A stretch of DNA of 32,000 nucleotides. It comes from Candidatus Poseidoniaceae archaeon. Lineage in GTDB: Archaea; Thermoplasmatota; Poseidoniia; Poseidoniales; Poseidoniaceae. Below, piece by piece: positions 1,830 to 21,405 of the stretch. Below the pieces are notes generated by a model that saw only the letters and a program-made list of their open reading frames with translations, was not told the DNA's origin and did no database searches. The position numbers were made by a program, and so were the translations under genes. The stretch lies in assembly GCA_943789275.1 (NCBI GenBank), contig CALSTM010000003.1, forward strand, positions 630,001-662,000, given 5' to 3'. How positions within the stretch are numbered: position 1 is the stretch's first letter; each line of letters starts with the position of its first letter.

Positions 1830-1873
1830 ACATCGACCCACAAGGATTCGCATTAAGAACAAATCGCTTTGAA

Positions 1874-3614: not shown

Positions 3615-4064
3615 ATGGAAAGAGAAATCGAAGGAATTGTAGAAATCGGTGCGAAAGCCGTTGTTGAACGCCGTGCCTCGGCAACAGGCCTCCTCAAACT
3701 AAGTGCTGAATCGGCACAAGCGATTCAAACAAAATCAGTCAAGAAAGGCGATGTTTTGGAAGCCTCCACCATTGCTGCAATCCAAGCGGTGAAAGACACG
3801 CCACGCATTGTTCCGCATTGTCACCCAATCCCTCTGGAAGGATGTAAGGTCCAATGGGCGTGGGAAGGGAACGCACTGCGTTGTACCGTTCATGTCTCAG
3901 CCCATTACAAGACTGGCATCGAAATGGAGGCGCTTACAGGAGTAAGTGCAGGCCTCTTGTGTGCGCTGGACATGGTCAAATCCATTGAGAAAGACGAGAA
4001 CGGTCAGTATCCCGGAACTTCCATTTCAGACATCGTTGTCCTTGAGAAGTTCAAAGGTCAGTAA
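3615..4064 (+). CDS. moaC: Cyclic pyranopterin monophosphate synthase accessory protein MoaC
   Basis: KKGDVLEASTIAAIQAVKDTPRIVPHCHPIPL...TGIEMEALTGVSAGLLCALDMVK matches conserved MoaC blocks. I chose ATG 3615, 12 nt after the moaE stop. The ORF-track start at 3582 would overlap moaE. Confidence 0.85.
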   Translation: MEREIEGIVEIGAKAVVERRASATGLLKLSAESAQAIQTKSVKKGDVLEASTIAAIQAVKDTPRIVPHCHPIPLEGCKVQWAWEGNALRCTVHVSAHYKTGIEMEALTGVSAGLLCALDMVKSIEKDENGQYPGTSISDIVVLEKFKGQ

Positions 4065-5761
4065 TTCTCAGAAAGAACTTCTTTCGCGCACTGCAGTATG
4101 CGTTCGTTTTCTTTTTGTGAACGAATGGCGAATCGAACGGCCTTATTGGTGAGGGATACACCCATGTTTTGAGCATCCCGAATGAACACACCTTTGCCTT
4201 TACACGCTTCGATAAACGAGGCTGAAGTATGGTGTGTATGCTCGGGTAAGAACGTCAAGATGAAATTAGCAACACCGGGTAGAACGGTAAACTTCTCTTC
4301 GTTCAACAAGCGGCTGAGCTCTTCCCTTTGCTGGTGAATGATGTTGTATTGCTGTCGGTAATATTCAGGGTTACGCAGTGCTGCAACCGCTGCGAGTTGT
4401 CCCGGTAGGCTAACGGCCCATGGCGGAATGAACCGCCGTAGTTCGTTCATCTTTTGACCGACCGCATAGGCTACACGCAGTCCTGACAGCGCGTAGCATT
4501 TGCTCATGCTTTTGCAGACGATGAGGCTTGGCGTGGTCGCAACCATCGATTCTAGCGATTGTGCTTCCGGTATGTAGTCGATGTAGGTCTCATCAACCCA
4601 AATCATCTTGCAACGGGTAGGGGATTCACTTTCATCTTGGATTCGGCGTACAATCTCACTCATTTCTTCGCTGTAAACGCCCGTCGGACTGTTGGGATTG
4701 ACAAAAATCACGGCATCGTGGAGGCGCGATTGTTCGACCAAATCATCAGCATTGATCTGAAAACCGTCTTCTTGGTGAAGAACAAAGTTCGTCATATGGC
4801 AACCAATGACATGGGTGAGGATGTGACTGTATTCACCGTACATCGGCGAGAGTACCATCACGTTCGAATCTTGATTGAGCAATTGCGGCAGGAACGAGAA
4901 CATCAACGAGGAGGAACCCGATGATACGGCAACATGCTTGGCGTTCACGCCACGGACATCAGCAACCGTTTCAATCAGTTCTTCACATTGCGTCGGAGGA
5001 GATTCTTGGCAACATCGTTCAAGTTGTTCCCGCAAAACATCGAGTGCTTCGGGACAAGGTGGGAACGGGCTATCGAGCACGTCGGCAACCACCAAGGAAT
5101 CACGAATTTCAAAATCGAACTTCGAAGTATCCCATGACTTGCCGCCGTGGTAGCAAACATCATCATCATCTTCTAAATTGATGTCAGCATCGATGCGTAG
5201 GGCGTGTTCCTTCATCACTTTTATGGGGTTTAGGTACATTGGATAATACAACGTTTGACCGTGCAGAACTCCGTGTTCATCAAAGACAGTCATGCCGTTT
5301 TTCCGGTACAACTCTGCAACTTCGGAATGTCCCATAGCGACGATATCTGTGCCGTCTCTTTCCAGGATAAATTCGAGCGCATACCGCATCAATCGGAATG
5401 AAATGTTCTGTCCTCGGAAAGCCGGATTTACGGTGAGAGCTCGAACTTCAAAGGTCGTGTTAAGTCGATGTTCGCATTCAGCATAGACCGTTTGTTCAAG
5501 AGTTTCTTTTGAGAAATAAGTGGTTATTCGGAACGGTTTTTCTTGAGGTGGATTGAGGCTGATGTATCCTGCGAGGACTCCGTTTTCCACGCAAGCGATA
5601 AAGTGACGTCCAGGGTCTTCGATTTTTTGTTCGGAATTGGCATCGTATTGTTGCAATTCGTTGGCATACACTTCATGACGAAGTCGAGAGATGCCGTTCC
5701 AAATCTGTACAACTTCTTTGTCATCGGGGAGCGGGTAATCAAAGTGCAAGAAATCTGCCAT
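4058..5761 (-). CDS. Fusion protein: N-terminal GNAT/N-acyl-synthase-like acyltransferase domain plus C-terminal class I/II (HisC/CobD-like) PLP aminotransferase domain
   Basis: Residues 1-190 (LRHEVYANELQQY..., VRALTVNPAFRGQNISFRLMRYALEFI) look like the acyl-CoA N-acyltransferase fold. Residues about 215-567 carry aminotransferase motifs VNPNSPTG, VDETYIDY and the PLP-lysine block CKSMSKCYALSGLRVAYA. It is a single uninterrupted 567-aa ORF. Confidence 0.75.
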   Translation of the reverse strand: MADFLHFDYPLPDDKEVVQIWNGISRLRHEVYANELQQYDANSEQKIEDPGRHFIACVENGVLAGYISLNPPQEKPFRITTYFSKETLEQTVYAECEHRLNTTFEVRALTVNPAFRGQNISFRLMRYALEFILERDGTDIVAMGHSEVAELYRKNGMTVFDEHGVLHGQTLYYPMYLNPIKVMKEHALRIDADINLEDDDDVCYHGGKSWDTSKFDFEIRDSLVVADVLDSPFPPCPEALDVLREQLERCCQESPPTQCEELIETVADVRGVNAKHVAVSSGSSSLMFSFLPQLLNQDSNVMVLSPMYGEYSHILTHVIGCHMTNFVLHQEDGFQINADDLVEQSRLHDAVIFVNPNSPTGVYSEEMSEIVRRIQDESESPTRCKMIWVDETYIDYIPEAQSLESMVATTPSLIVCKSMSKCYALSGLRVAYAVGQKMNELRRFIPPWAVSLPGQLAAVAALRNPEYYRQQYNIIHQQREELSRLLNEEKFTVLPGVANFILTFLPEHTHHTSASFIEACKGKGVFIRDAQNMGVSLTNKAVRFAIRSQKENERILQCAKEVLSENY

Positions 5762-9796: not shown

Positions 9797-10423
9797 ATGG
9801 CGGTTCAGCAAGTTCGCATCGAAGTTCGGTTGCCGGAAGGCCATTGGGCGGGGGATGTAACGCGCAGCCACCCTTCAGCAGTCTTGCGAATCGAGGAACA
9901 CATGCCCTTGCAGAAGGGAAGAGGGACGGCTCGTGCTTCATGCAGTGAGGAGATTACTGCTACGGTATCGGAACATTCTGGTATCGAAGAAGTCCGCAGT
10001 TTTGGGAAACAGAGTTTTGTGGTGGACATTATTGCAGGAGGTGGAGGTTTTCTCAAACCACTTCTCAAAGTCGGCGTAATCCCACATACACCGTTCGAGG
10101 TTCGGGACGGTTGGGTCGAATGGACCATTTCATGCGCTCGTGAAAAAGTGCGAGATTTGCTTTCTGGCTTTGATGATGAAGACATTCCCTACCAACTGGT
10201 TTCGACGCGTGGAGTCACCAATCGATTGCTCACACCTCGTCAACGCTATGTGTTTGATACGGCCATGAAGGAAGGGTACTACGATGTGCCACGACGTATC
10301 ACATTGACCGAGTTAGCCGTTGTCCTTGACGTTGCGAAATCCACTTTGTCTGCACAACTCCATCTCATCGAATCAACGGTACATCACGCCTTTGCTGATG
10401 ATATCCGTCGGCGTAGCCCCTAA
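9797..10423 (+). CDS. HTH_10 (bacterio-opsin-activator-type HTH) transcriptional regulator
   Basis: The C-terminus LTPRQRYVFDTAMKEGYYDVPRRITLTELAVVLDVAKSTLSAQLHLIESTV is the classic archaeal HTH_10 block (LT.RQ...L..A...GY...PR). The start ATG 9797 (MAVQQVRIEVRLPEGHW...) gives about 208 aa, typical for the family. Confidence 0.8.
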   Translation: MAVQQVRIEVRLPEGHWAGDVTRSHPSAVLRIEEHMPLQKGRGTARASCSEEITATVSEHSGIEEVRSFGKQSFVVDIIAGGGGFLKPLLKVGVIPHTPFEVRDGWVEWTISCAREKVRDLLSGFDDEDIPYQLVSTRGVTNRLLTPRQRYVFDTAMKEGYYDVPRRITLTELAVVLDVAKSTLSAQLHLIESTVHHAFADDIRRRSP

Positions 10424-10443
10424 CATGTTCGTACGAACATGTT
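10422..10443. promoter_or_regulatory. Perfect 22-bp palindrome AACATGTTCGTACGAACATGTT; candidate operator/activator site
   Basis: Read directly and verified self-complementary over all 22 nt. It overlaps the regulator stop codon (TAA 10421-10423), sits about 10 bp upstream of an AATAA TATA-like element (10453-10457) and ends 39 bp upstream of the ATG at 10482. Confidence 0.5.
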
Positions 10444-10481
10444 CGCAAAGGCAATAAGGTGGACCCACCCATCCTCTCACC

Positions 10482-11642
10482 ATGGACAACCTACCGAATA
10501 CATGGGAAGACTGGATTTCAAACTTTACCGAATGGCAAGACCGCGTCGGATTTGACCGCGATTGGATGGGTGACTTTGACCTCTCCATTCAGTTCGACTG
10601 GGACCGTGCTGGTGACCTCATCGAATACGGCGACTATGCAGGACGCCCAAAGTGGGAACGTTCGCTCCAAGTTCCTCAGCAAAGCATGCGCGACGCTCTT
10701 GTCAGTATGATTACCGTTCAGGGCGACACAGAATTCGCTTCCGTTGAACAACAACGTCACCTTCTCGCCTCCGCACCAACGGACTACGACCGCTATGCAG
10801 CTGCCAGGATCATGGCCGAAGAACAACGCCATGGATGGCAAATGGCTTACCTTTTGATGACCTACTTTGGACAACAAGGACGTCGCGAGGCACAAAAACT
10901 CCTCGAGCGCAACGCCCAAGACGGCGATCGATTGCTTGGTGCTTTCAACCGCCCAATGCCACACTGGCTCGATTTCTTCTGCTACACCATGTTTGTTGAC
11001 CGTGACGGTAAGTTCCAACTTGGCATGCTCTCAACATCCGCTTTCAAGCCTCTGGCTGCGTCCATGGGACCAATGCTCAAGGAAGAGTCGTTCCACCTTG
11101 GAACCGGCTCCAACGGATTGCGCCGAGTCATCAAGGCCGGTATTATCCCGCTCGACATGCTTCAGAAATTCTTCAACAAGTGGGTTTCAACCGCACATGA
11201 CTTGTTTGGTGTCGACGCATCATCTTCGGCTCACTGGTCGTATGTCTGGGGTGTTAAAGGACGCTGGGACGAGCGCAAGAAACTCGAAGCTGGTATTGAA
11301 GTGGACAAGGAAGTTCTCAATGAAGAAGCCCGAGGCCACTACCACGCAGAGATTGTTGCTGAAGTTGCTAAACTCAATGGATACCTTCCAGAAGGCAGCA
11401 CTCCGCTGATCGTTCCTCACGAAAACTTCAACCGTGACATTGGTGCATTCAAGCGTCAACGCTTCACCATCGAAGGTACGCCGTTCGAAGGCAGCGATGA
11501 AGAGTGGGACGCCTACATGGATTCGGCTCTTCCAAACGCATCGGACGAAGCACAACTCAAAGAATTTTTCAAGCAAGAATGGGTCGCTAACAAGCCGATG
11601 TCTGCTCGTCAAATCGCATCCGGTATCGGTGCCAAAGTTTGA
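10482..11642 (+). CDS. Class I diiron-carboxylate oxygenase, BoxB-like (benzoyl-CoA 2,3-epoxidase subunit B family) / PaaA-related
   Basis: Two E-x-x-H motifs (MAEEQRHG, LKEESFHLG) plus upstream carboxylates (QGDTEFASVEQQRHL, FVDRDGKFQL), spaced as in four-helix-bundle diiron proteins. The blocks QGDTE.ASVEQQRHL and DRDGKFQL match my recollection of BoxB. At 386 aa it is shorter than canonical BoxB (about 470 aa). Confidence 0.7.
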   Translation: MDNLPNTWEDWISNFTEWQDRVGFDRDWMGDFDLSIQFDWDRAGDLIEYGDYAGRPKWERSLQVPQQSMRDALVSMITVQGDTEFASVEQQRHLLASAPTDYDRYAAARIMAEEQRHGWQMAYLLMTYFGQQGRREAQKLLERNAQDGDRLLGAFNRPMPHWLDFFCYTMFVDRDGKFQLGMLSTSAFKPLAASMGPMLKEESFHLGTGSNGLRRVIKAGIIPLDMLQKFFNKWVSTAHDLFGVDASSSAHWSYVWGVKGRWDERKKLEAGIEVDKEVLNEEARGHYHAEIVAEVAKLNGYLPEGSTPLIVPHENFNRDIGAFKRQRFTIEGTPFEGSDEEWDAYMDSALPNASDEAQLKEFFKQEWVANKPMSARQIASGIGAKV

Positions 11643-11667
11643 GACCCGTACGCTCTGGAGGGTAACT

Positions 11668-12204
11668 ATGATTCCAGTCTCATTGTACGGTATCGACGTC
11701 GAAAAGTGCGAAGCGTTCTACGCAGCACTGCCCGGACTTGTGGCGGACACGGTCGACGATGAAAAGTACGCGAACGCTCTGTTTTCCATTGAAAGTGAAG
11801 CATCCCTTGAACACATCCGTGTCGCTGACCAATGGTCAGACAACGACCCTTTCGTTTGGCCTGAAGACATCTCGAACGAAGTAGAAATGACGCTTCGTAC
11901 CGTGAACTATCCTGACGTGTCCCTGCTGGAACACCTCTTAACCCTCGACAATGTGGACGCTGCTCGTGTTTCAACATGGATGCACTTCTCGACCAACTTG
12001 TTTCCTCTGTACACAGAGGCTGCTTGTGCCACTCTGACTCGAATGGGTGTTCCGACGCCCTATGACCCAACCGACATTGCCAGTTATGGGCTCTATGTTT
12101 CTCGCATTGAAGGCTTGAAACTTTACGCACCTGCGGCTGGTCTGCCTGAAATCGGCTTACCCCGTTCACGCATGCTCCAACTCGGATTGGAGCGGTTTTC
12201 ATGA
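11668..12204 (+). CDS. Acidic hypothetical protein (178 aa), co-operonic with the diiron oxygenase
   Basis: ATG 11668 is preceded by GGAGGG 8 nt upstream. Its stop overlaps the next gene's start (ATGA at 12201-12204). I recognise no motif. The ORF-track start at 11434 lies inside the upstream gene. Confidence 0.55.
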   Translation: MIPVSLYGIDVEKCEAFYAALPGLVADTVDDEKYANALFSIESEASLEHIRVADQWSDNDPFVWPEDISNEVEMTLRTVNYPDVSLLEHLLTLDNVDAARVSTWMHFSTNLFPLYTEAACATLTRMGVPTPYDPTDIASYGLYVSRIEGLKLYAPAAGLPEIGLPRSRMLQLGLERFS

Positions 12205-13121
12205 AGAACCTCTTGGTTCACATGAAATTAATATTTGTCGTCATCGTTTGGGGTTTTGGCTGGCCTGCTGGTCGTGTGATTGCACAAGACATTGCCCCGT
12301 TTGCAGCCTCATGGATTCGTTACGTCGTCGCTGTCGCTTTGTTTGTGATTTACCTCAAACTCTCCAGTCAGTGGATGATTCCTACTCGAGGTGAATGGAA
12401 AAGAATTGCTTGGATCGGTTTTTTTGCAACCTGTCTGTATCAGGCCTTCTTCATGGTTGGAATGAAATACACCGCAGCCGGCGACGCATCTTTGATGATT
12501 ACCTTCAATCCCTTTTTCACTGCCGTTCTTGCCATTTTCTTCCTCAATGAAGCGATGCACTGGCGACTCGGTGCGGGTATTGCTCTGGGTCTAGCAGGTG
12601 TAACCGTTCTCTTTCTCTACTCACCAAACGTCGACATTCCGTTCTATGAACGGGCACTTGGTGATGTTCTCATCGCAGGTGCTGCCTTTGCGTGGGCTTG
12701 CAACTCCATCCAAATGAAAATTGCAATGACAGAACCGGCCGTAGATTCGGACCGTTGTCTCTCTCCGTTGCAGCTCACCGTCTGGTCCTCTGTGATTGGC
12801 CTGGTGATGTTGACTCCAATCGCAGCAGTTGAAACTGCAGTTATGGGGATTCCTGAACCGTCGTTTGATGGTTGGGTTGCCATTCTATTCCTTGCCATCT
12901 TCTCGACCGTTGTTTCGTACGTTTGGTTTGCTGACGGTATACTTACCATCGGGGCAGGTAAAAGTGCCTTGTACGTCTATCTTGTACCCATCTTCGGCAT
13001 TTACAGCGGCTATTTACTGCTTGACGAGAAACTCGGTGCTTCGCTTCTGGTTGCCTTCGTGTTGATTGTCGGCGGTGTTGCGCTTGCCCAAAGCAAGCAA
13101 CACGCTGTCAAGGAAGCATGA
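12201..13121 (+). CDS. EamA/DMT-superfamily transporter (10 TM)
   Basis: Two EamA-like repeats in a 306-aa polytopic protein with a typical VIWGFGWPAGRV start. It is translationally coupled to the upstream ORF. Confidence 0.85.
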   Translation: MKNLLVHMKLIFVVIVWGFGWPAGRVIAQDIAPFAASWIRYVVAVALFVIYLKLSSQWMIPTRGEWKRIAWIGFFATCLYQAFFMVGMKYTAAGDASLMITFNPFFTAVLAIFFLNEAMHWRLGAGIALGLAGVTVLFLYSPNVDIPFYERALGDVLIAGAAFAWACNSIQMKIAMTEPAVDSDRCLSPLQLTVWSSVIGLVMLTPIAAVETAVMGIPEPSFDGWVAILFLAIFSTVVSYVWFADGILTIGAGKSALYVYLVPIFGIYSGYLLLDEKLGASLLVAFVLIVGGVALAQSKQHAVKEA

Positions 13122-13146
13122 TGAAGTCCGGCCTGTTGGGTCACGC

Positions 13147-14034
13147 ATGGAGATTCGTTGCGTAGCGGTTATCGGCGCAGGAACAATGGGTGCTGGAATT
13201 GCACAAGTTTGTGCTCAAAGCGGTTGGAAAACGAACCTGTTTGACGCCTTTCCGGAAGGGTTGGAGCGAGGTATGGCTCGAATTGATGCATTTTGGGACA
13301 AGGGAATCGCTCGAGGTAAGACGACTCTTGAGCAAAAGGAGTCGTGGAGTGCGAACCTCCACGCTGTATCGAACATGGCTGAGGCAGTAGCGCAGGCAGA
13401 CATGATCATCGAAGCAGTTCCAGAAATACCGGACTTGAAACACTCCATTTTTGCCGAATTGGACAAACTTGCTCAACCTCATGCCATACTTGGTACAAAC
13501 ACTTCATCGCTCTCCATTGCAGATATTGCGGCAGCGACTTCTCGCCCTGAAAGCGTCATTGGTATGCATTTCTTTAATCCAGTTCCAATCATGAAGTTGC
13601 TCGAACTCGTTCGACATGATTCGACCAGTGAACATACAGTTGCAGTTGCTCAAGCAGCCGGTGCTGCAATGGGTAAAACGACAATTCTTGTCAAAGACAT
13701 CCCAGGGTTTGCGACCAGTCGACTTGGCGTTGTTCTTGGAAACGAAGCCATCCGTATGCTGGCCGATGGTGTTGCGAGTGCCAAAGACATTGACACTGCA
13801 ATGGTACTCGGCTACAAACATCCAATGGGACCGTTGGCCCTAACCGATTTGGTTGGTCTTGATGTGCGCCGTGATATTCTCAAGAATTTACAAACCTCGT
13901 TCAACGATGATGCCTATGCACCCCATCCGATGTTGGAAAAACTCGTCGCCTCAGGCCGTTTGGGTAAGAAATCCGGTAAGGGGATCTACGATTGGTCCAC
14001 CGGCGAGGCAGTTGAGACTGAGCTACCTGAATGA
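13147..14034 (+). CDS. 3-hydroxyacyl-CoA (3-hydroxybutyryl-CoA) dehydrogenase
   Basis: VAVIGAGTMGAGIAQV Rossmann motif, TNTSSLSI, IGMHFFNPVPIMKLLELV, and C-terminal GRLGKKSGKGIYDW. I chose start ATG 13147 (MEIRCVAVIGAG). Confidence 0.9.
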   Translation: MEIRCVAVIGAGTMGAGIAQVCAQSGWKTNLFDAFPEGLERGMARIDAFWDKGIARGKTTLEQKESWSANLHAVSNMAEAVAQADMIIEAVPEIPDLKHSIFAELDKLAQPHAILGTNTSSLSIADIAAATSRPESVIGMHFFNPVPIMKLLELVRHDSTSEHTVAVAQAAGAAMGKTTILVKDIPGFATSRLGVVLGNEAIRMLADGVASAKDIDTAMVLGYKHPMGPLALTDLVGLDVRRDILKNLQTSFNDDAYAPHPMLEKLVASGRLGKKSGKGIYDWSTGEAVETELPE

Positions 14035-14855
14035 TTCAGTTCATAGCCGCAGTGTTTGCAATGTTTTGCGTTTGAGTCGTGGCCTTCTTTGGAACACTGC
14101 ATGCAAGCACGAGTGCTGAAATCTCCAGCCTTGATGAGTTCGGTTGAGATAATTCCTGTCGGGACGATGATGAGGCTGTATCCCATGATCATAATGAATA
14201 TCGCCAGCACTTTGCCAACTGGAGTCAACGGGACGGTATCTCCGTATCCGGTACTCGTCAAGGTTACAATCGCCCAATAGACGCTTTGGGGAATGGAAGT
14301 GAATCCGTTTTCAGGCCCTTCAAACAGGTACATGCCGGCACCGGTAATAAAACTGAGAATGGTGACCGTGGTCAAGAAGACAATAATTCTTGAACGTGAT
14401 TCGAGAATTGCAGCACCGAGTATCGATGCTTCGCCGACGTATCGGGTGAGTTTGAACACTCGAAAAACTCGGAGCAGACGCAGTGCACGGATGATGAGAA
14501 GGCTTTGAGCTCCGGGGATGAAAAAGCTCAGGTAGGTTGGAAGAATTGCCAAAAGGTCCACTATTCCGAAGAACGAGGTTGCGTACTCTATCGAATGGCG
14601 AGTGATGTAGAGGCGCGTGAAGTATTCAATGGTGAACAAGATGGTGAAAAACCATTCAGCAAAAACCAATTCTGTGTGGTACTGTGAATTGATGCTGTCC
14701 ACACTTTCAAGCGAGACCGCGATAATCGAGCCAATAATGGATACGAGTAATGCTGCATCAAAGTAGGTGCCGTACTTGGTATCGGCTTCAAATATGATTT
14801 CGTGCATTTTTTCCCGAAACGATTTTTCTTCTACCGTTTCAGACACGAACTTCAC
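13986..14855 (-). CDS. Voltage-gated K+ channel (6TM, KvAP-like) with C-terminal zinc-ribbon tail
   Basis: S4 voltage sensor IIRALRLLRVFRVFKLTRYV, K+ selectivity filter TLTSTGYGD, and C-terminal CMQCSKEGHDSNAKHCKHCGYEL (C-x2-C...C-x2-C). GTG start 14855 overlaps the upstream stop (GTGA). ATG at codon 17 is an alternative. Confidence 0.85.
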   Translation of the reverse strand: MKFVSETVEEKSFREKMHEIIFEADTKYGTYFDAALLVSIIGSIIAVSLESVDSINSQYHTELVFAEWFFTILFTIEYFTRLYITRHSIEYATSFFGIVDLLAILPTYLSFFIPGAQSLLIIRALRLLRVFRVFKLTRYVGEASILGAAILESRSRIIVFLTTVTILSFITGAGMYLFEGPENGFTSIPQSVYWAIVTLTSTGYGDTVPLTPVGKVLAIFIMIMGYSLIIVPTGIISTELIKAGDFSTRACMQCSKEGHDSNAKHCKHCGYELNHSGSSVSTASPVDQS

Positions 14856-15640
14856 TCCTTGTGAAACACTGGCTTACGCTTGTCAAGAAAGGCAGTCACG
14901 CCTTCTTTGAACGCTTCAGTCGTTCCTGCTGCCTCGATGAGGGTGCGTTCATGGTTGAGGTGGGATTCGAAATCCTGTGACGATTGGACATGAAGTAAAT
15001 GCTTGGTTGCTTCTTTGGTGTGTTCGCCCCATTGACTCCATCGAGCAGCCATAGAACACGCTGCGTCAACGAGTCTGTCTGCATCAACAAGAGCATCTGC
15101 TGCACCAACGGCTACGCATTGCTCTGCATTCCAAATTTCGTTTTCCAAAAAGAACCGTCGTGAGACCTGTTCGCCGACCAGCCGAGGAAGGAGCCATGTT
15201 GTCCCACCATCCGGTGAAAGTCCCATGCCAGCATAGGATGCAGCCATTTTCGCTTGAGGCGAGGCGATACGAGCGTCACACGCTAGAGCCAGTCCAAGGC
15301 CACCACCTGCACTTGCACCGTTGAGGGCTGCAATGGTGATGGTTGGTGATTGCCGCATTCGTATCAGCAGTGGGTGAAGGATTCCTGTAAGGTCACGAAT
15401 CAACTGAGGCGCTTCTTTGTCTTCAATCGATTGAGCGAAGGCATTGATGTCAGCACCTGCAGAGAAGAACTTCCCTTCTCCAGTAAGGACCAACGCTCGG
15501 ACGTTTGGGTGAGTGAGTCCAGCATCGATGGCTTGGACGATGTGCGGTAAGAATTCACGAGAAAACGACTGCGTTGCCGATGGACCAGAGAATTGAATGA
15601 GACGAATGCCGTTTTCCAAATCGGTAGATTCTATTGCCAT
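14852..15640 (-). CDS. Enoyl-CoA hydratase/isomerase (crotonase) family protein
   Basis: FFSAGADINAF and LNGASAGGGLGLALACDARIA motifs. Length is 262 aa. It starts 9 nt after the aldehyde dehydrogenase stop. Confidence 0.85.
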   Translation of the reverse strand: MAIESTDLENGIRLIQFSGPSATQSFSREFLPHIVQAIDAGLTHPNVRALVLTGEGKFFSAGADINAFAQSIEDKEAPQLIRDLTGILHPLLIRMRQSPTITIAALNGASAGGGLGLALACDARIASPQAKMAASYAGMGLSPDGGTTWLLPRLVGEQVSRRFFLENEIWNAEQCVAVGAADALVDADRLVDAACSMAARWSQWGEHTKEATKHLLHVQSSQDFESHLNHERTLIEAAGTTEAFKEGVTAFLDKRKPVFHKE

Positions 15641-15649
15641 TGTGATCCC

Positions 15650-17086
15650 TCAAAGTTTGACGTTGACGTTCTTCACCTTGGTGTAGAATCGCAATGCATC
15701 TTTGCTTTGCTCTATCCCGATGCCGGATTGTTTCCAACCGGTAAATGCAGTTTGTGGGAAGGTAATTGGGTACTCGTTAATGGAGACCATGCCGCTTTCC
15801 AAATCACGAGCCATCGAATGAGCACGGCTCAAGTTCTGCGTCCAGATGCCGTTGAGAAGGCCAAACGGTGAGTCGTTCGCAAGGGCGAGTGCTTCAGCAT
15901 CATCGCTGAATGAAGTGACGGAGAGAACTGGGCCAAACAATTCCTCATTGAACAGAAGATTGGAACTGTCAACACCGGTGATAACGGTTGCTTCCATGAA
16001 AGCGCCTTCACCTTCGATGATGTTTCCACCGCATACCACTTCTCCACCCATGGCGAGTCCTGCTTGTAATTTTTCCATGACTTCAGCACGGTGATTTTCG
16101 TGAACCAAACTGCCAATTCGTACGCCTTCAGACATACCAGGGCCGACTTTCCACTTGGCGACTTCAGCCACGACTGCTTCGACCAACTGGTCATGAACAT
16201 CTTCGTGAACAATGAGTCGAGAACCAGCCCAGCACATTTGTCCAGCGTTCATGAATATGCCAAAGCAGATGGCTTTAGCAGCGTAGCGAAGGTTGGCGTC
16301 AGCAAACACGAGGTTTGCTCCTTTTCCACCGAGTTCAAGAGTCACTGGAGTGAGGTTTTCACTGGCCTTGGCCATGACCGTTTGACCGGTTGGTACACCG
16401 CCCGTAAGGACGATTCCGTCCACACCCTTGTGGCCTGCTAAAGCGTCTCCAATCAGTCCACCGGAGCCGGTGATCACTTGGAGAACGCCGGTTGGAAGGC
16501 CGACTTCTGCTTCTTCCATGGCCTTGGCCCATGCCAAGAGTGACAGCGGAGTCCACGATGCGGGTTTGGCAATCACGGTGCATCCTGCTGCCAGTGCAGG
16601 TGCAATGGAACGGATGGCCAGTTGAAGTGGAAAGTTCCACGGAACGATGTGAACGGTAACGCCGAGCGGTTGTCGCAGGGTGTAGTTGAGACGGTTACCC
16701 GGAACAGGAATGGTACTGCCTTCGATTTTATCAGATAGACCTGCAAAGTATTCCAGTGTCCATGCACCGTAGCGAATTTCAGATAGGGCTTCACGGAACG
16801 TCTTACCGTTGTTGTTGGATTCTATGGCTGCCAGTTCCTTGGCTTTCGCATAGGTGGCTTGTGCCATTTTATTGAGGATTCGTCCACGCTGAGCAGGGTC
16901 CATTGCTTTCCATGATGGGTCTTCGAACGCTGCACGAGATGCGTCAACGCAACGGTTGACGTCGGCGAGAGTTGCTTTGGGTGTTGTCGCCATAACTTCG
17001 CCCGTAGCAGGGTTCAGAATATCGGCCGTCGTTCCATCTTCAGCATCACACCATACTCCAGCAATTGACATCTGTTCTGCGCTCAT
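15650..17086 (-). CDS. NAD(P)+-dependent aldehyde dehydrogenase
   Basis: ILNPATGEV, WNFPL, the ELGGKG glutamate motif and the catalytic Cys block FMNAGQMCWAGSRL. I chose start ATG 17086 (MSAEQMSIAGVW). The ORF-track start at 17152 is a TTG. Confidence 0.9.
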   Translation of the reverse strand: MSAEQMSIAGVWCDAEDGTTADILNPATGEVMATTPKATLADVNRCVDASRAAFEDPSWKAMDPAQRGRILNKMAQATYAKAKELAAIESNNNGKTFREALSEIRYGAWTLEYFAGLSDKIEGSTIPVPGNRLNYTLRQPLGVTVHIVPWNFPLQLAIRSIAPALAAGCTVIAKPASWTPLSLLAWAKAMEEAEVGLPTGVLQVITGSGGLIGDALAGHKGVDGIVLTGGVPTGQTVMAKASENLTPVTLELGGKGANLVFADANLRYAAKAICFGIFMNAGQMCWAGSRLIVHEDVHDQLVEAVVAEVAKWKVGPGMSEGVRIGSLVHENHRAEVMEKLQAGLAMGGEVVCGGNIIEGEGAFMEATVITGVDSSNLLFNEELFGPVLSVTSFSDDAEALALANDSPFGLLNGIWTQNLSRAHSMARDLESGMVSINEYPITFPQTAFTGWKQSGIGIEQSKDALRFYTKVKNVNVKL

Positions 17087-17204
17087 GAACTGCCCAAGTG
17101 CTGTCCCCTCAAAGGCATTCGCTTTGGCAAGACAAGCACAAAGGATGCTCAAGCAACGGTAAAGGGCGAAAAGACTCTTGAAGCAGATTCATTGTGCTTT
17201 GTCC

Positions 17205-17870
17205 ATGGCTCGAAATGTAAGTTTGGCTGATGCTGCTGCTCGAACCATTGCTGACCGAGCACCGAGATTGTTGGTTGTGGCAGGAGCAACCGGAACAGGG
17301 AAATCCACTGCCTCGGTTCAATTGGCGGCTGAGAACAACTTCGCACGGCTTCTTTCAACCGATGCAATACGAGAAATTATGCGTTCTTGCGATGAAGAGC
17401 GCAGCCAGTCAGCCCTCCACCGTTCATCCTTTTCACGTGGTGATTCAGGTGAGCCTGTCCTTGATTGGATGGAAACATGCAAAGCTGTGGAAACTGGAAT
17501 CATCGCTACGATTGATCGAGCTCGTCGTGAAGGCATCGACTTGATTATCGAAGGCGTACATATCAATCCAAGTGAACGCTTACTGCGCAGTTGGCGCGAG
17601 GCCGGTGGAATTGCAATTGGCCTTGTTATGGCCGTCGGTGAGGAAGACCGTCATCGTTCGATGATTCGTTCCCGAGAAGCCCATTCGTTTCGACGTGCAG
17701 ACCGTTACTTGGCAGCCTTCCCTCGAATTCGCGCCATACAAGACGGGTTAATCGAGCGAGCTAAAATTGCATCTTGGCCAATCGTTGATTTATCCCGCGT
17801 CAGTAAAGATACTGAACGCATCAAGCACCTCATGGACCTTGCTTGGAACGAACACACGCAGCGTCGTTAG
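17205..17870 (+). CDS. 2-phosphoglycerate-kinase-like P-loop kinase
   Basis: LLVVAGATGTGKSTASVQLA, STDAIREIMR and DLIIEGVHINP match the archaeal 2PGK family pattern (GxxGxGKST ... TD.IRE.MR ... IIEGVH). There is no ATP-cone domain. I chose ATG 17205; the track start at 17178 is a TTG. Confidence 0.65.
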   Translation: MARNVSLADAAARTIADRAPRLLVVAGATGTGKSTASVQLAAENNFARLLSTDAIREIMRSCDEERSQSALHRSSFSRGDSGEPVLDWMETCKAVETGIIATIDRARREGIDLIIEGVHINPSERLLRSWREAGGIAIGLVMAVGEEDRHRSMIRSREAHSFRRADRYLAAFPRIRAIQDGLIERAKIASWPIVDLSRVSKDTERIKHLMDLAWNEHTQRR

Positions 17871-18316
17871 GCGTGCGTGATGTCAAACGCCAACTGTACA
17901 GTCATCATTACTGAACCGTCAGATATGCCGAGTTCCGCTTCAAAGTGAAGTGTGCTCGCTGAAGTTTCGTTGACCTGCATTCCGATGAGTTTGATTTCAA
18001 TACCCCTCAACTCGCCATGATAGAGCATGTCGTTGTGGACGCTTTGGAATGCCGTTTCTCCGGCTTCAAGCGGTTCCAGACCACCGTCAATCCACAACTG
18101 TGTTCGTGCTTCAGTAAGTTCCGGAACGGCATCGGCCACTTCCAGCGAGGTCACCAGCACTCCGTCGGAAGCCGTGTCATGGGGCATGGTAAGCCCAGCA
18201 ACTTTGACGCCAAAGATGGCCATCGACAGCAGCGACATCAGCAAGACCACACCGGTTGCCAGCAGCATTTGTGCAGCATCTCTGTCTTCTGTTGAGCGAT
18301 CATGGAGCGTGCGCAT
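17867..18316 (-). CDS. Pilin-like protein candidate (class III signal-peptide-like N-terminus)
   Basis: MRTLHDRSTEDRDAAQMLLATGVVLLMSLLSMAIFGV has a charged head followed by a hydrophobic helix of about 22 aa. GGAGGTG lies 9 nt upstream. The start shares one base with the upstream stop (TGATG). It is the last gene of the filament operon. Confidence 0.5.
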   Translation of the reverse strand: MRTLHDRSTEDRDAAQMLLATGVVLLMSLLSMAIFGVKVAGLTMPHDTASDGVLVTSLEVADAVPELTEARTQLWIDGGLEPLEAGETAFQSVHNDMLYHGELRGIEIKLIGMQVNETSASTLHFEAELGISDGSVMMTVQLAFDITHA

Positions 18317-18756
18317 CAGGCACCACCTCCACGGTTCCAGACGTCAAGCGTAACCGTCCATGCGTGTTCATCGATGGACAGCAAGTGGTGAACAGTTACC
18401 GTTTCACCGGCGGGTGTCCCCGTATTCCCGTACGGAGCAGAAGTGCCGCTGTTCTGTGCTAACCAGCAGTTGGATTCTTTTCCTGCGACGATGTAATCCT
18501 GGAGCAGTTGGCACGCTTCGTCCAATTCTCCGTTTTCGAGTAATTCACTCAAGCGATTCTCACCCGAGATTTCTGCTTCAAGTCCAATACCGTATCGAAA
18601 GGCATCATCTCCAGCGATTTCCAGCGCTGCATCATGAGCGACCGAGGGTGCATCCGGCACTTGAATTCGAATCAAGAAGGTTGCCGACATGAAAAACAGC
18701 CAAAACAGCGTCAACATCTCGAGGATGTGGATTTGCGCTTCTTCGTTTTGACGCAT
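18316..18756 (-). CDS. Pilin-like protein candidate (class III signal-peptide-like N-terminus)
   Basis: From ATG 18756: MRQNEEAQIHILEMLTLFWLFFMSATFLIRIQVP.... The polar head, a Q, then a hydrophobic helix resemble the ..RGQAHTLE.. N-termini I recall from haloarchaeal pil-locus proteins. GGGTGA lies upstream. The track start TTG 18762 is possible. Confidence 0.5.
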   Translation of the reverse strand: MRQNEEAQIHILEMLTLFWLFFMSATFLIRIQVPDAPSVAHDAALEIAGDDAFRYGIGLEAEISGENRLSELLENGELDEACQLLQDYIVAGKESNCWLAQNSGTSAPYGNTGTPAGETVTVHHLLSIDEHAWTVTLDVWNRGGGA

Positions 18757-18762
18757 TCTCAA

Positions 18763-20352
18763 TCACCCGAAGAACAGCGGCGAAGGAACGAACGTACCCG
18801 TAGACGGATTGAGACCTGGCACTTCGGTGATACCGATAAGGTTCGGTGTGAACGCTAAGAAGTTGAACACGACAATGGACACGAGAATCATCATTCCCGA
18901 GTGCTTGAATCCAGTTGAGAATCGACCGGTTGACATGAGGCCCGCCATTGTACCGTTACCGACCGCCTGCATGGTGACACCGTAATAGAACACCGTCAGG
19001 AAAAACAACGGGTCAATGTTACGAATCGTCATGTTACCGATGGTTTGACCTCCACTGTCACCACCGTCTTCACCGCTGGAGTTCGAACCGGCAATGGCAG
19101 GAATAAAGACCACAGCAAGTGTAACAATAACCCCGAGGAAAACGAAGTATGATGTCCAAATAACCGCAATATACGAACCGATTGCACGCTTTCGTTCTCC
19201 TTCTAAGAACTTCAATTCTCGAGAGTCGTTTGCCGCAGTGACAAGGATATCCGAAATCTTACCACCTGCGCGGTCTGCTTCAGCAATAAGAGCAATCGCA
19301 CGTTGAACCAGAGGCGTTCCTACACGGTCAGCAAATTGTTTGATGACATCACTGAACTTGATACCCCAACTGAGTTGGTCGGACATTTTCTTGACTTCGT
19401 CATTTAACGCTCCGTATTCGGAGGTCGCCAGCGTTTGAATTGCAACGGTCATCGAAAGACCACCCTTCCAGTATTCTGCCAAGTCACGAAGGAAATCGGG
19501 GAACTTTTCTTCGACTTCGTTCTTTGCGTTCTCGACCCGTTCCCAGTAGTAGGACGCAGGATACAAGAGGAAAAAGAACGTCATCCCGAAGAAGTTGAGG
19601 AAAATGAACGGCCGTATGGATTTGGGCCCGAGATTGACTTCAGGGCCAAGCCAGTACGATTTGTTGTTCATGTTCGATGGAATGCCATCGTAGTAGTGGA
19701 CAGTGACATCAAACGTCATTTCTGATATTCGCTTCCCTTCTTCTTGGGAAAAGGCAACAAGTTCGTATCGTTTTTCCGCAGGAATATGATCAAGGGTGAT
19801 GCCACAACCGTCGTTATCGGGATTGTTATCGGTATCTGTAGTGCCTTGGTGGGTTGCAAGGACTTCACCGCTTTGGGAGCGAATAGCGATGATGTAGTCG
19901 GTTGGTGTATCTGCATCAACGCTGCAATTGAGCCAAAGAGGCTGGAGTACGACGATACCGGCAATCTGGTCCGAGTTTACGCCAGGGACGTCGAAGTTCT
20001 TGCCTTGTTTGGAAAATGTTCTCCATTCTTCGTTTGCCCATACCACACGGTCAGGTTCATCCTGAAGAATCGAACACGATTGATTTGCGGAGTAATCCGG
20101 TTTAATGTTCGTGTTGAACTTATCTCCCATTGAATTGCCTTGAGAATCTTCAGCGGTCATACCACAGTACAGGTTGGTGAACATTGGCTCACCGTTTGCA
20201 GTTGGAATGAATCCCGAATTGGTGGCCCAAACAGCTCCAGTGACCAAGCCTAAGAAGATGGAAACGAAAAGAATGGCATACAGTTTTGTGAGGGTGGAGT
20301 CGTCCTTCGGTAGGTCAAGTTTGACGATAATTTTATTCTTCTTTTTTGCCAA
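18763..20352 (-). CDS. Type IV filament platform protein (single T2SS-F/TadC/FlaJ-like domain) with N-terminal signal anchor and ~205-aa extracytoplasmic domain
   Basis: The C-terminal half (FPDFLRDLAEYWKGGLSMTVAIQTLA...VQRAIALIAEADRAGGKISDILVTAANDSRE...) is a T2SS-F domain followed by TM helices. Three starts are possible. TTG 20352 has a strong GGAGGTGA 4 nt upstream and is the one I chose. GTG 20370 gives a GTGA overlap with the upstream stop. TTG 20397 is the ORF-track start and gives a 31-nt overlap. Confidence 0.75.
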   Translation of the reverse strand: MAKKKNKIIVKLDLPKDDSTLTKLYAILFVSIFLGLVTGAVWATNSGFIPTANGEPMFTNLYCGMTAEDSQGNSMGDKFNTNIKPDYSANQSCSILQDEPDRVVWANEEWRTFSKQGKNFDVPGVNSDQIAGIVVLQPLWLNCSVDADTPTDYIIAIRSQSGEVLATHQGTTDTDNNPDNDGCGITLDHIPAEKRYELVAFSQEEGKRISEMTFDVTVHYYDGIPSNMNNKSYWLGPEVNLGPKSIRPFIFLNFFGMTFFFLLYPASYYWERVENAKNEVEEKFPDFLRDLAEYWKGGLSMTVAIQTLATSEYGALNDEVKKMSDQLSWGIKFSDVIKQFADRVGTPLVQRAIALIAEADRAGGKISDILVTAANDSRELKFLEGERKRAIGSYIAVIWTSYFVFLGVIVTLAVVFIPAIAGSNSSGEDGGDSGGQTIGNMTIRNIDPLFFLTVFYYGVTMQAVGNGTMAGLMSTGRFSTGFKHSGMMILVSIVVFNFLAFTPNLIGITEVPGLNPSTGTFVPSPLFFG

Positions 20353-20366
20353 CTTCTCACCTCCTC

Positions 20367-21386
20367 TCACATTTCTTGTTCTTTGCTGCTTGTCCAAACC
20401 AATATGGCGTAAGCAATGTGAATCATTGGTACAAACCCGAGGACAATACCATAGAGCATACCTTCAGACATTTGAGCACCGCTACCGGAGACCCAGAACA
20501 TGATGACCAGCATGACAATCAGGAACAGCGGCATAGCCACAGCGACGACAATGTACGATTCTGCCAGAAGCGCAATCGATTCAAGGAACATCTGAAGGCG
20601 TGTTCGGTTTTCACGCATGTAGTGCTCTGCACGGTTAAGGAAATACAATTTCAGTTGACCACCAGCAGTCAATGTACCAACCATGCCTTGGAAGAACTCC
20701 GTTAACCAAACGGATGCGGCTCGATCGACGCTCATTTTCATGGCCGTGATGAGGTCATAGCCAAGCAAGGTAACATCTCTGTACACCATGGCAGCGTCGT
20801 CTGCGACGTCACCGTAGATGTCTTTGTTCATGGCAAGAGAGCGGAAAATCTTGGAAGGTGTTGCGTTTGCCGCAGACATTGCAGCGGTATAGGATGCAGC
20901 GTAAGGAAGGTACTTCTCAATCATAGCACCTCGTCGTGCAGCCTCTCGGGCTGCTCCACCCTTGTTGTACTTGAAAGCGCCATAGGGAATAATCAATCCA
21001 CCAAGAGCAATGATGAGTGTTTTGAGGATTGGTGGGAAGACTTGGTATGCAAATCCATCGCAACCGTTTCCTGGTTTGTTCGGGTCAACCAAATCTTGAT
21101 TCCAGTACTCCCACTCGAAACAGTAGTCGATGGTCGCAGGGTCTTGGATGCTCTCCCAATAGGCAATGACGCCGATATCTGGGATGAAAAACAGCGAGAC
21201 GAACCCCCATGAAACCAGCGTAATGGCAATGGTTGTCATGATTGCAGTAGCAAGATAGACTTCTGGCATAATCGGCATAGCGCCTTTGACCAGGCTCTTT
21301 GCGAGCTCTTTGTCGCCACGAGCACGCTTACGCAAGAATCGACCGAGAAAACGGTTGCAAATCCTTTGCCACGTGGTTAAGTCCAT
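20367..21386 (-). CDS. Type IV filament platform protein (single T2SS-F/TadB/FlaJ-like domain)
   Basis: 339-aa polytopic protein with T2SS-F-like core EKYLPYAASYTAAMSAANATPSKIFRSLA...GYDLITAMKMSVDRAASVWLTEFFQGMVGTLTAGGQL. The SD GGAGTGA lies 5-6 nt upstream of ATG 21386. Confidence 0.75.
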   Translation of the reverse strand: MDLTTWQRICNRFLGRFLRKRARGDKELAKSLVKGAMPIMPEVYLATAIMTTIAITLVSWGFVSLFFIPDIGVIAYWESIQDPATIDYCFEWEYWNQDLVDPNKPGNGCDGFAYQVFPPILKTLIIALGGLIIPYGAFKYNKGGAAREAARRGAMIEKYLPYAASYTAAMSAANATPSKIFRSLAMNKDIYGDVADDAAMVYRDVTLLGYDLITAMKMSVDRAASVWLTEFFQGMVGTLTAGGQLKLYFLNRAEHYMRENRTRLQMFLESIALLAESYIVVAVAMPLFLIVMLVIMFWVSGSGAQMSEGMLYGIVLGFVPMIHIAYAILVWTSSKEQEM

Positions 21387-21405
21387 CGAATCACTCCACT
21401 TTTGT

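Follow-up and report, generated by a model that had tools for sequence, protein, structure and literature searches.

A short BoxB-like diiron oxygenase of Marine Group II archaea and soil bacteria: a predicted aromatic acyl-CoA epoxidase linked to a single-domain crotonase

Introduction

Do Marine Group II (MGII) archaea possess an aerobic route for aromatic coenzyme A (CoA) thioesters, and could it run on a BoxB-like oxygenase without the usual partners of BoxB? The question is raised by a four-gene operon, headed by a gene for a short BoxB-like diiron oxygenase, in a 32,000-nucleotide stretch of contig CALSTM010000003.1 (assembly GCA_943789275.1, positions 630,001 to 662,000; hereafter the window). 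Judging from the source names on near-identical proteins, the window belongs to an archaeon of the Poseidoniaceae (MGII, subgroup MGIIa); its base composition is even throughout. An earlier reading of the letters, made without database searches (the sequence-only reading), had suggested that the operon could represent an archaeal variant of a CoA-thioester epoxidase or oxygenase pathway. Having compared the locus with its relatives, we lean towards the view that the oxygenase epoxidises an aromatic, benzoyl-CoA-like acyl-CoA as part of a compact Box-like pathway.

As yet uncultured, MGII archaea rank among the most abundant heterotrophs in the surface ocean. Their oxygenase is labelled in databases as 'boxB' or 'benzoyl-CoA oxygenase component B', as 'PaaI' or as a Paa protein. 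A Red Sea metatranscriptome study reported MGII boxB among the highly expressed genes (PMC5069720), and the supplements of that paper hold no 'boxB' entry. Aromatic catabolism is not described in two comparative-genomic and transcriptomic papers on MGII (PMC6336850, PMC9723583), and full-text literature searches yielded no account of the short BoxB subfamily, of its crotonase partner, or of a linkage to 4-hydroxybenzoyl-CoA reductase.

Family, metal site and pocket of the oxygenase

Residues 66-304 of the oxygenase matched the Pfam family PaaA_PaaC (PF05138) with 59.1 bits (gathering threshold 28.5). Among the curated NCBIfam models the protein scored 222.3 bits with BoxB (TIGR03225; equivalog cut-off 499.1) and 37.5 bits with PaaA (TIGR02156; cut-off 280). 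The scores obtained with the BoxB model are cleanly bimodal, canonical BoxB proteins reaching 672-908 bits and the oxygenase and its short-form relatives 101-234 bits. The closest solved structure is that of BoxB (PDB 3PER, E 2e-52 over residues 44-266), followed by 4MUD (E 2e-19, query residues 60-216) and by PaaA chains (E ~1e-5). The best profile and structure matches are therefore to BoxB and not to a different ferritin-like family, in agreement with the sequence-only reading, which had seen a likeness to BoxB and a more distant one to PaaA.

All four ligand motifs (GDTE, EEQRH, DRDGK and EESFH) were found in the protein. The iron ligands of BoxB are Glu120, Glu150, His153, Asp211, Glu240 and His243 (PMC5489048); E84, E114, H117, D173, E202 and H205 of the oxygenase align with them, none being lost, and the six-ligand layout of class I diiron proteins proposed earlier is upheld. 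All 9 MGII and all 58 bacterial short-form sequences have the same residues at these six positions. The residues which orient the ring and thioester of benzoyl-CoA in BoxB are Gln116, Thr119, Ser123, Phe193, Phe203, Phe206 and Thr210 (PMC5489048), and their counterparts in the oxygenase are Q80, T83, S87, F155, F165, Y168 and V172. The first five are kept in all 67 short-form sequences. The position of F206 holds Tyr in the window and Phe in the MGIIb subgroup, and either of the two across the short forms; that of T210 holds V, I or M throughout the short subfamily. A further short-form relative (P0308, 367 residues) has lost most of the ligands (E84 to H, E114 to N, H117 to S, D173 to N, E202 to H), a loss resembling the non-catalytic PaaC subunit.

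The alignment shows the oxygenase to be 87-89 residues shorter than canonical BoxB (473-475 residues), close to the deficit of about 85 given in the sequence-only reading. The difference arises through about five deletions: on the N-terminal side the N-terminus itself and a segment of ~25 residues ahead of the first ligand helix, and on the C-terminal side a 19-residue insertion past the last ligand helix, a post-core segment of ~30 residues and the C-terminus. On a neighbour-joining tree the short forms are separate from canonical BoxB, and the MGII proteins make up a single clade beside the bacterial short forms. Because it fails the curated BoxB equivalog threshold, the oxygenase is, by sequence comparison, placed in a sister subfamily of BoxB and not treated as a BoxB orthologue. 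We define this short BoxB-like subfamily by a length of 350-395 residues, BoxB-type ligands, a hydrophobic residue at the T210 position and a linked orthologous single-domain crotonase. The window oxygenase belongs to it, its crotonase being displaced to positions 963-1862.

An exhaustive profile search of 1.8 billion cluster representatives retrieved only 848 clusters at E<=1e-3, and the family is a small one. Among the matches listed in species-representative genomes, identity to the window protein is 84-89% in MGIIa, 58-61% in MGIIb/Thalassarchaeaceae and 53% in other Thermoplasmatota. The bacterial short forms among these matches (47-54% identity) include many from Acidobacteriota (Terriglobia, Acidoferrales, Sulfotelmatobacter), Gemmatimonadota and Eremiobacterota, and single metagenome-assembled genomes of Binatia, Eisenbacteria and a deltaproteobacterial lineage. 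Acidobacteriota, Gemmatimonadota and Eremiobacterota together contribute the majority of the species-level short-form matches listed. Since it occurs in these three phyla, the short subfamily (about 350-390 residues) is not specific to archaea, and the archaeal framing of the variant in the sequence-only reading has to be given up: most listed species-level matches are bacterial.

A crotonase as the most constant neighbour

Gene neighbourhoods were compared by calling open reading frames (ORFs) in the window and in 80 related loci and clustering them by BLAST; the partner crotonase was then counted by tblastn in 83 loci. This crotonase is the most constant neighbour of the oxygenase. Its orthologue in the window lies 8.6 kb upstream on the opposite strand, and is 64-80% identical to the enoyl-CoA hydratase (ECH) immediately 5' of the oxygenase in MGIIb and 55-66% identical to the ECH adjoining the oxygenase in Acidobacteriota and Eremiobacterota. 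It is thus better conserved between archaea and bacteria than the oxygenase itself (~50% identity). An orthologue of at least 50% identity was found in 65 of the 83 loci, within 3 kb of the oxygenase in 55 of them and upstream on the same strand in 56; about half of the 18 remaining loci are truncated just 5' of the oxygenase. The linkage spans the Archaea and four or more bacterial phyla.

Both hydratase glutamates can be read in the window copy (GGGLE...LPEINLG). The structure of BoxC (PDB 2W3P) matches its N-terminal half (E 4e-17), and the orthologues, all single-domain proteins of 270-300 residues, are 38-41% identical to BoxC residues 53-152 by tblastn. The sequence-only reading had looked to the convergent operon for a crotonase and an aldehyde dehydrogenase (ALDH) that might supply the pathway; both genes are present there, but the conserved crotonase partner is the distant one at 963-1862.

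The MGIIb gene order is flavoprotein, crotonase, oxygenase, acidic protein, 3-hydroxyacyl-CoA dehydrogenase (HADH). In MGIIa the flavoprotein-crotonase pair, its genes 11 nt apart, is inverted away from the oxygenase, and a gene for an HTH_10 regulator and one for an EamA transporter are added. An HADH orthologue follows the oxygenase on the same strand in 24 of the 83 loci, and the HADH of the window is 44-51% identical to the one found downstream of the oxygenase in bacterial clusters. These linkages bear on the possibility that the four genes of the operon are merely adjacent, the oxygenase acting alone or in a non-catabolic role such as detoxification or O2 scavenging. The EamA gene is indeed confined to MGIIa, and the insertion of a K+ channel gene and the split from the crotonase mark the region as rearranged. 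Against this stands the order oxygenase-acidic protein-(transporter)-HADH, which is kept in MGIIa and MGIIb alike; the proteins are 58-89% identical, and the genes overlap or are joined by very short junctions. The HADH gene is also 3' of the oxygenase in Gemmatimonadota and Acidoferrales. We hold fortuitous adjacency to be extremely improbable. Synteny with CoA-pathway genes, proposed earlier as a check, is conserved across two domains of life.

Aromatic-CoA genes in the bacterial clusters

In 21 acidobacterial loci three molybdenum hydroxylase genes lie downstream of the oxygenase on the same strand. The large subunit scored 996-1042 bits with the model of the 4-hydroxybenzoyl-CoA reductase alpha subunit in six of seven proteins tested and 983 bits in the seventh (cut-off 994.55), and 4-hydroxybenzoyl-CoA reductase is the best or second-best match of the beta and gamma subunits. 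The product of this reductase, an enzyme regarded as 'anaerobic', is benzoyl-CoA. The clusters also hold a TetR regulator, an ALDH directly 5' of the oxygenase, a second crotonase, class I CoA-transferase subunits and an Amidohydro_2 protein, the latter Pfam family including aromatic decarboxylases and hydratases. The conserved order (L058, 5491-18119, and ~20 others) begins with a DapA/HpaI-like aldolase, TetR, crotonase, ALDH and oxygenase, and continues with CoA-transferase B, crotonase, CoA-transferase A, a rhodanese, the gamma, alpha and beta subunits of 4-hydroxybenzoyl-CoA reductase and Amidohydro_2. A cluster of this type couples the supposedly anaerobic enzyme with an O2-dependent oxygenase.

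Other phyla display other neighbours. In Eremiobacterota a PaaX-family regulator is divergent from the oxygenase-crotonase pair; it has all three PaaX Pfam domains and reaches 231 bits with TIGR02277, below the cut-off of 265. The order in Gemmatimonadota is ALDH, a 3-oxoadipyl-CoA-thiolase-like protein (578 bits, cut-off 605), crotonase, oxygenase and HADH; in one locus (L028) a PaaF-like crotonase comes next, and as judged from the sequences this gene set amounts to a complete lower half of a Box-type pathway. A PaaG-like crotonase is encoded immediately 5' of the oxygenase in Acidoferrales. The bacterial linkage is to enzymes which make or sense aromatic CoA esters, finishing at 3-oxoadipyl-CoA, and the family assignments of these genes place the short subfamily within aromatic acyl-CoA catabolism in bacteria.

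These bacterial neighbours also bear on a different proposal, namely that the oxygenase hydroxylates, desaturates or epoxidises a non-aromatic (fatty, branched or alicyclic) acyl-CoA as an accessory step of the extensive MGII beta-oxidation. Such a role would suit the generic nature of the MGII-linked ECH, HADH and ALDH, the three ECH genes of the window and the lack of any linked aromatic-specific gene in it; V, I or M at the T210 position makes the pocket more hydrophobic, and the partner ECH has both hydratase glutamates, like ordinary enoyl-CoA hydratases. The bacterial orthologues, however, are linked to 4-hydroxybenzoyl-CoA reductase, PaaX, a pcaF-like thiolase and Amidohydro_2, and the aromatic-stacking residues F155 and F165 are conserved together with Y/F168. 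To our knowledge, moreover, the only characterised members of this diiron branch are arene epoxidases. We regard a non-aromatic substrate as rather unlikely.

Missing Box and Paa partners and the supply of electrons

BoxA and benzoate-CoA ligase queries were taken from a canonical cluster which reads benzoate-CoA ligase, regulator, boxC-boxB-boxA. BoxA had no tblastn match at E<=1e-3 in the window or in the 83 related loci, and a scan for BoxA-like Cys motifs found none in the window; the absence of a BoxA-like reductase, already remarked upon in the sequence-only reading, is hereby confirmed. Likewise, no tblastn match to benzoate-CoA ligase was obtained in the window or the 83 loci, and no two-domain BoxC (~556 residues) was found there, the only partial match being to the single-domain ECH.

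These results bear on a further alternative, in which the oxygenase is an archaeal BoxB orthologue that works as in Azoarcus, with boxA, boxC and boxD elsewhere in the genome. Its database labels say BoxB, BoxB is its best NCBIfam and PDB match, and the ligands and most pocket residues are conserved; but its TIGR03225 score is less than half the cut-off and far from the canonical range, and the short forms have a clade of their own. Furthermore, boxC-boxB-boxA are contiguous in canonical clusters, whereas the window and the 83 loci have no BoxA, and a different, single-domain crotonase is consistently linked in place of BoxC. A BoxB orthologue in this strict sense is very improbable.

None of PaaB, PaaC, PaaD and PaaE was detected in Pfam and NCBIfam scans of ORFs of at least 120 residues, covering most of the window, or of the called genes of three related MGIIa loci (L081-L083), and no linked PaaK or PaaZ was found in the same scans. 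This concerns the idea that the oxygenase is a PaaA-type phenylacetyl-CoA 1,2-epoxidase and the operon a reduced Paa pathway for phenylacetate derived from phenylalanine. It would fit a protein-degrading MGII lifestyle; Pfam puts the oxygenase in PaaA_PaaC and some orthologues carry Paa names at NCBI, the convergent crotonase resembles PaaG and oxepin-CoA hydrolase, the ALDH has a strong, sub-threshold similarity to phenylacetaldehyde dehydrogenase, and a PaaX-like regulator is linked in Eremiobacterota. In addition to the missing subunits, the weak scores against the PaaA model and the PaaA chains in PDB speak against it, as do the pocket residues, which match BoxB; neither BoxB nor PaaA accepts the substrate of the other (PMC4498308). 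We consider this idea improbable.

How the diiron site might be reduced was approached through a scan of the MGII loci for ferredoxin Cys motifs, which returned one small ORF in a single MGIIb genome. There (L005, 5617-7229), an 86-residue 2x[4Fe-4S]-type ferredoxin ORF and a 445-residue amine-oxidase-like flavoprotein lie directly 5' of the flavoprotein-crotonase-oxygenase genes. The two could be an electron-supply pair, and were not seen in other MGII loci. Since a linked equivalent of BoxA or PaaE is missing from every lineage, electrons probably reach the oxygenase from a non-dedicated (housekeeping) ferredoxin or reductase. In the canonical system BoxA is needed only in small amounts, and BoxC co-purifies with BoxB and relieves its product inhibition (PMC4498308).

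The flavoprotein encoded beside the crotonase in MGII was considered as the missing reductase, a role disfavoured by its model, the fold of which is not of the FNR, BoxA or PaaE type. Among the best 120 of its 723 homologues (E <= 0.001), all source names are Poseidoniaceae or Thermoplasmatota. Its AlphaFold2 model (pLDDT, the model's own confidence score, 77) has as its best Foldseek matches Bmp2, squalene epoxidase, VioD, KMO, GGR and FixC (TM 0.5-0.58, 13-16% identity), and on this model the protein has a p-hydroxybenzoate-hydroxylase (PHBH)/geranylgeranyl-reductase (GGR)/flavin-halogenase fold. It more likely represents a second substrate-acting enzyme than an electron donor. In the window the flavoprotein-crotonase pair is followed after a 4-nt gap by a gene of the thiopurine/thiol S-methyltransferase family (323-958, minus strand). 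In other MGIIa genomes (L081, 3230-7394) it is followed by genes for a DeoC-family aldolase and a 348-residue Rieske/Ring_hydroxyl_A oxygenase alpha subunit, the latter a further hint of aromatic metabolism in some MGIIa genomes.

The operon, its regulator and the rest of the window

The features of the window are collected in Table 1. The operon (10482-14034) comprises four genes on the plus strand. Its tight packing was described correctly in the sequence-only reading: gaps of 25 nt separate the oxygenase from the acidic-protein gene (11643-11667) and EamA from HADH (13122-13146), and between them the acidic-protein and EamA genes share an ATGA overlap (12201-12204), by which EamA is translationally coupled. 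The four gene identities it proposed (diiron oxygenase, acidic unknown, EamA, HADH) agree with the Pfam and NCBIfam results.

Table 1. Genes and sites of the window discussed in the text
Feature	Position	Strand	Remarks
Conserved crotonase partner (ECH type)	963-1862	-	Both catalytic Glu present
MGII-specific FAD protein	1874-3136	-	420 residues; Pfam NAD_binding_8 only
HTH_10 (halobacterial-type) transcription regulator	9797-10423	+	Pfam HTH_10 E 1e-13
Perfect 22-bp palindrome AACATGTTCGTACGAACATGTT	10422-10443		Candidate operator
Short BoxB-like diiron oxygenase	10482-11642	+	386 residues; PaaA_PaaC/BoxB-like (Pfam, NCBIfam)
Acidic protein, no family	11668-12204	+	178 residues, pI 4.3; no Pfam/NCBIfam assignment
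EamA/DMT-family transporter	12201-13121	+	306 residues; Pfam EamA E 1e-39
HADH	13147-14034	+	295 residues; Pfam 3HCDH_N 207 bits, 3HCDH 110 bits
K+ channel, voltage-gated type	13986-14855	-	Pfam Ion_trans + Ion_trans_2
PaaG-like crotonase-fold isomerase	14852-15640	-	262 residues
NAD(P)-dependent ALDH	15650-17152	-	500 residues; Pfam Aldedh 530 bits

The acidic protein has 192 homologues, every source-named one being from Poseidoniaceae, Thermoplasmatota or Euryarchaeota, and 49 invariant positions. Its AlphaFold2 model is all-helical (pLDDT 82); no PDB fold match, no Pfam match and no similarity to BoxB were found. By tblastn of the 83 loci its gene is confined to those of MGII, where it is always directly 3' of the oxygenase. 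The protein was also considered as a substitute for the BoxB segments lost in the short form. This was rejected: a profile-profile comparison was empty, and the bacterial short forms are without the acidic protein. In place of the EamA transporter of MGIIa operons, MGIIb has a PQ-loop/SWEET-like protein of 97 residues after HADH. Additions found in MGII only are the EamA transporter, the acidic protein and the PHBH-fold flavoprotein; the HTH_10 regulator and the palindrome upstream of the oxygenase are specific to MGIIa.

The NCBIfam matches of the HADH are generic, and its score with PaaH is 245 bits, below the cut-off of 669. In the convergent crotonase the first catalytic Glu is missing (GGGLG) and the second motif contains Asp; its best NCBIfam matches are 'oxepin-CoA hydrolase, alternative type' (176 bits, cut-off 300) and PaaG (152 bits), and its PDB neighbours include the PaaG structures 6SLB, 3HRX and 4FZW_C. 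It is conserved only within MGII, being 45% identical to the MGIIb copies and ~30% to bacterial ECHs. The ALDH is most like betaine-aldehyde and phenylacetaldehyde dehydrogenase among the NCBIfam models, with every score below cut-off. It shares 38-42% identity with the ALDH adjoining the oxygenase in bacterial clusters, and is a candidate for the semialdehyde dehydrogenase of the pathway. The K+ channel gene is inserted between HADH and the PaaG-like crotonase and overlaps the 3' end of HADH by 49 nt; in the related MGIIa loci L081-L083 it is missing, and HADH and the crotonase are convergent with a 4-nt overlap.

The HTH_10 ORF is open from 9581, and comparison with 204-residue orthologues makes 9797 its likely start. 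The regulator was seen only in the MGIIa arrangement, a 204-residue orthologue lying directly 5' of the oxygenase in L081-L083. Between its stop codon and a BRE/TATA-like AAAGGCAATAAGG, ~25 bp further on, lies the palindrome (region 10422-10459). A 12-bp core palindrome, CGAACATGTTCG, at 10434-10445 is duplicated here as the 22-bp palindrome, and the window holds just two good matches to it, both at 10422-10445. The core is kept at the same position in six other MGIIa loci (L001, L002, L003 and L081-L083) and is absent from the MGIIb loci, which are without the regulator. The palindrome is, from its sequence and position, a plausible operator for the HTH_10 protein.

Elsewhere in the window, the segment lying between the crotonase partner and the oxygenase holds a gene (4058-5761, minus strand) for a 567-residue fusion of an N-terminal GNAT/FeeM-like N-acyl-amino-acid-synthase domain and a class I/II aminotransferase domain, which is not found in L002 and L081-L083. 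An archaeal type IV pilus/archaellum-like locus (17867-22932, minus strand) encodes two T2SSF/FlaJ-like membrane proteins, a FlaI-like ATPase and two small unknowns. The third ECH of the window (26265-27107, plus strand) is 56-60% identical to an ECH near the MGIIb operon.

Discussion

Family placement, conservation of ligands and pocket, gene linkages and phylogenetic breadth are what we observed; substrate, epoxidation chemistry, electron donor and the individual roles of the downstream enzymes follow here as predictions. The oxygenase would bind an aromatic acyl-CoA, most likely benzoyl-CoA or a near analogue with a substituted ring, and Gln80 would hold the thioester. The Fe2 site (E84, E114, H117, D173, E202, H205) would activate O2, and the ring would be epoxidised, electrons coming from a housekeeping ferredoxin system. 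The partner crotonase (963-1862) would act on the epoxide or oxepin by hydrolytic ring opening and in this way also relieve product inhibition. The ALDH might then oxidise the semialdehyde, the PaaG-like isomerase shift the 3,4-double bond, and a hydratase and the operon HADH bring the C6 dicarboxyl-CoA to the 3-oxo stage, final cleavage being left to a thiolase encoded elsewhere.

Several observations weigh against this scheme. The curated BoxB threshold is failed and ~88 residues of BoxB are missing, so the geometry of the substrate channel may differ; T210 is swapped for a hydrophobic residue subfamily-wide. The window lacks genes for an aryl-CoA ligase, BoxA, PaaE and a thiolase, and so do the MGII loci within 10 kb. 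The aromatic-specific neighbours (4-hydroxybenzoyl-CoA reductase, PaaX, pcaF-like) are all bacterial and none is from MGII. ECH, HADH and ALDH are generic enzymes of the beta-oxidation type, plentiful in MGII and with three ECH genes in the window alone, and the window ALDH shares just 38-42% identity with those of the bacterial clusters. On balance, the pathway variant suggested by the sequence-only reading is supported by family, ligands and cross-domain synteny; it is still a prediction, in which we place slightly more confidence than doubt.

Should the aromatic reading hold, a tentative generalisation might follow, which we rate below the reading itself: a compact diiron arene epoxidase and a single-domain ring-opening crotonase may form a two-protein core without BoxA or BoxC, and with it a third type of aerobic 'hybrid' aromatic-CoA pathway, found in MGII and in soil Acidobacteriota, Gemmatimonadota and Eremiobacterota. 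To this core MGII would have recruited the PHBH-fold flavoprotein and the acidic helical protein; the latter might assist electron transfer or assembly.

With a functional aromatic-CoA epoxidase pathway, the diet of MGII would extend to a further class of dissolved organic carbon. The most abundant archaea of the surface ocean would then mineralise benzoate-type aromatics, such as those from phytoplankton exudates or from the breakdown of aromatic amino acids. The short form is widespread in both MGII families and reported to be highly expressed (PMC5069720). For enzymology, the short subfamily offers a minimal BoxB, ~20% smaller, with no dedicated reductase and with a simple crotonase partner. 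It prompts one to ask what parts of BoxB, BoxA and BoxC can be dispensed with, and by what route the diiron site is reduced. The acidobacterial linkage to 4-hydroxybenzoyl-CoA reductase suggests a widespread soil route for 4-hydroxybenzoate that mixes an 'anaerobic' enzyme with an O2-dependent step.

Comparison with known systems

With PaaA (PaaABCE; PDB 3PW1, TIGR02156, PF05138) the oxygenase shares the Pfam family, the ligand set including the Asp, and, by prediction, the use of a CoA-thioester substrate; PaaG-, PaaH- and PaaF-like enzymes and a PaaX-like regulator occur in the related short-form clusters. It differs in its very low similarity (37 bits) and in the absence of the subunits PaaB, PaaC, PaaD and PaaE. 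BoxB-type enzymes work as monomers, without a structural subunit. Another short relative in this branch is the uncharacterised PDB 4MUD ('ring oxydation complex/phenylacetic acid degradation related protein', 235 residues); it is much shorter than the oxygenase, consisting of the core bundle only.

The convergent crotonase compares best with PaaG and the alternative oxepin-CoA hydrolase. For both crotonases all scores are below the curated cut-offs. The crotonase partner resembles BoxC in its crotonase fold and in its gene position relative to the oxygenase, and differs from it in being single-domain and in keeping both hydratase glutamates.

From BoxB itself (Azoarcus evansii; PDB 3PER/3PM5, TIGR03225) the oxygenase is set apart by its length, ~88 residues shorter, by a score under half the family cut-off, by its separate clade, and by V/I/M in place of T210 and, often, Tyr in place of F206. 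As a system, the short-form loci lack the BoxA Fe-S flavoprotein reductase (2x[4Fe-4S] + FAD) and a linked benzoate-CoA ligase, have a 270-300-residue single-domain crotonase in place of the two-domain, 556-residue BoxC, and occur in archaea. What the two share is a class I diiron four-helix-bundle core with ~40-43% identity, the identical six ligands (E, EXXH, D, EXXH), most of the benzoyl pocket and the Gln which forms a hydrogen bond to the thioester. ALDH and beta-oxidation genes are linked, and in most short-form relatives a crotonase-family gene lies immediately 5' of the oxygenase, as boxC does; since the canonical cluster reads boxC-boxB-boxA, the order of crotonase followed by oxygenase is common to both.

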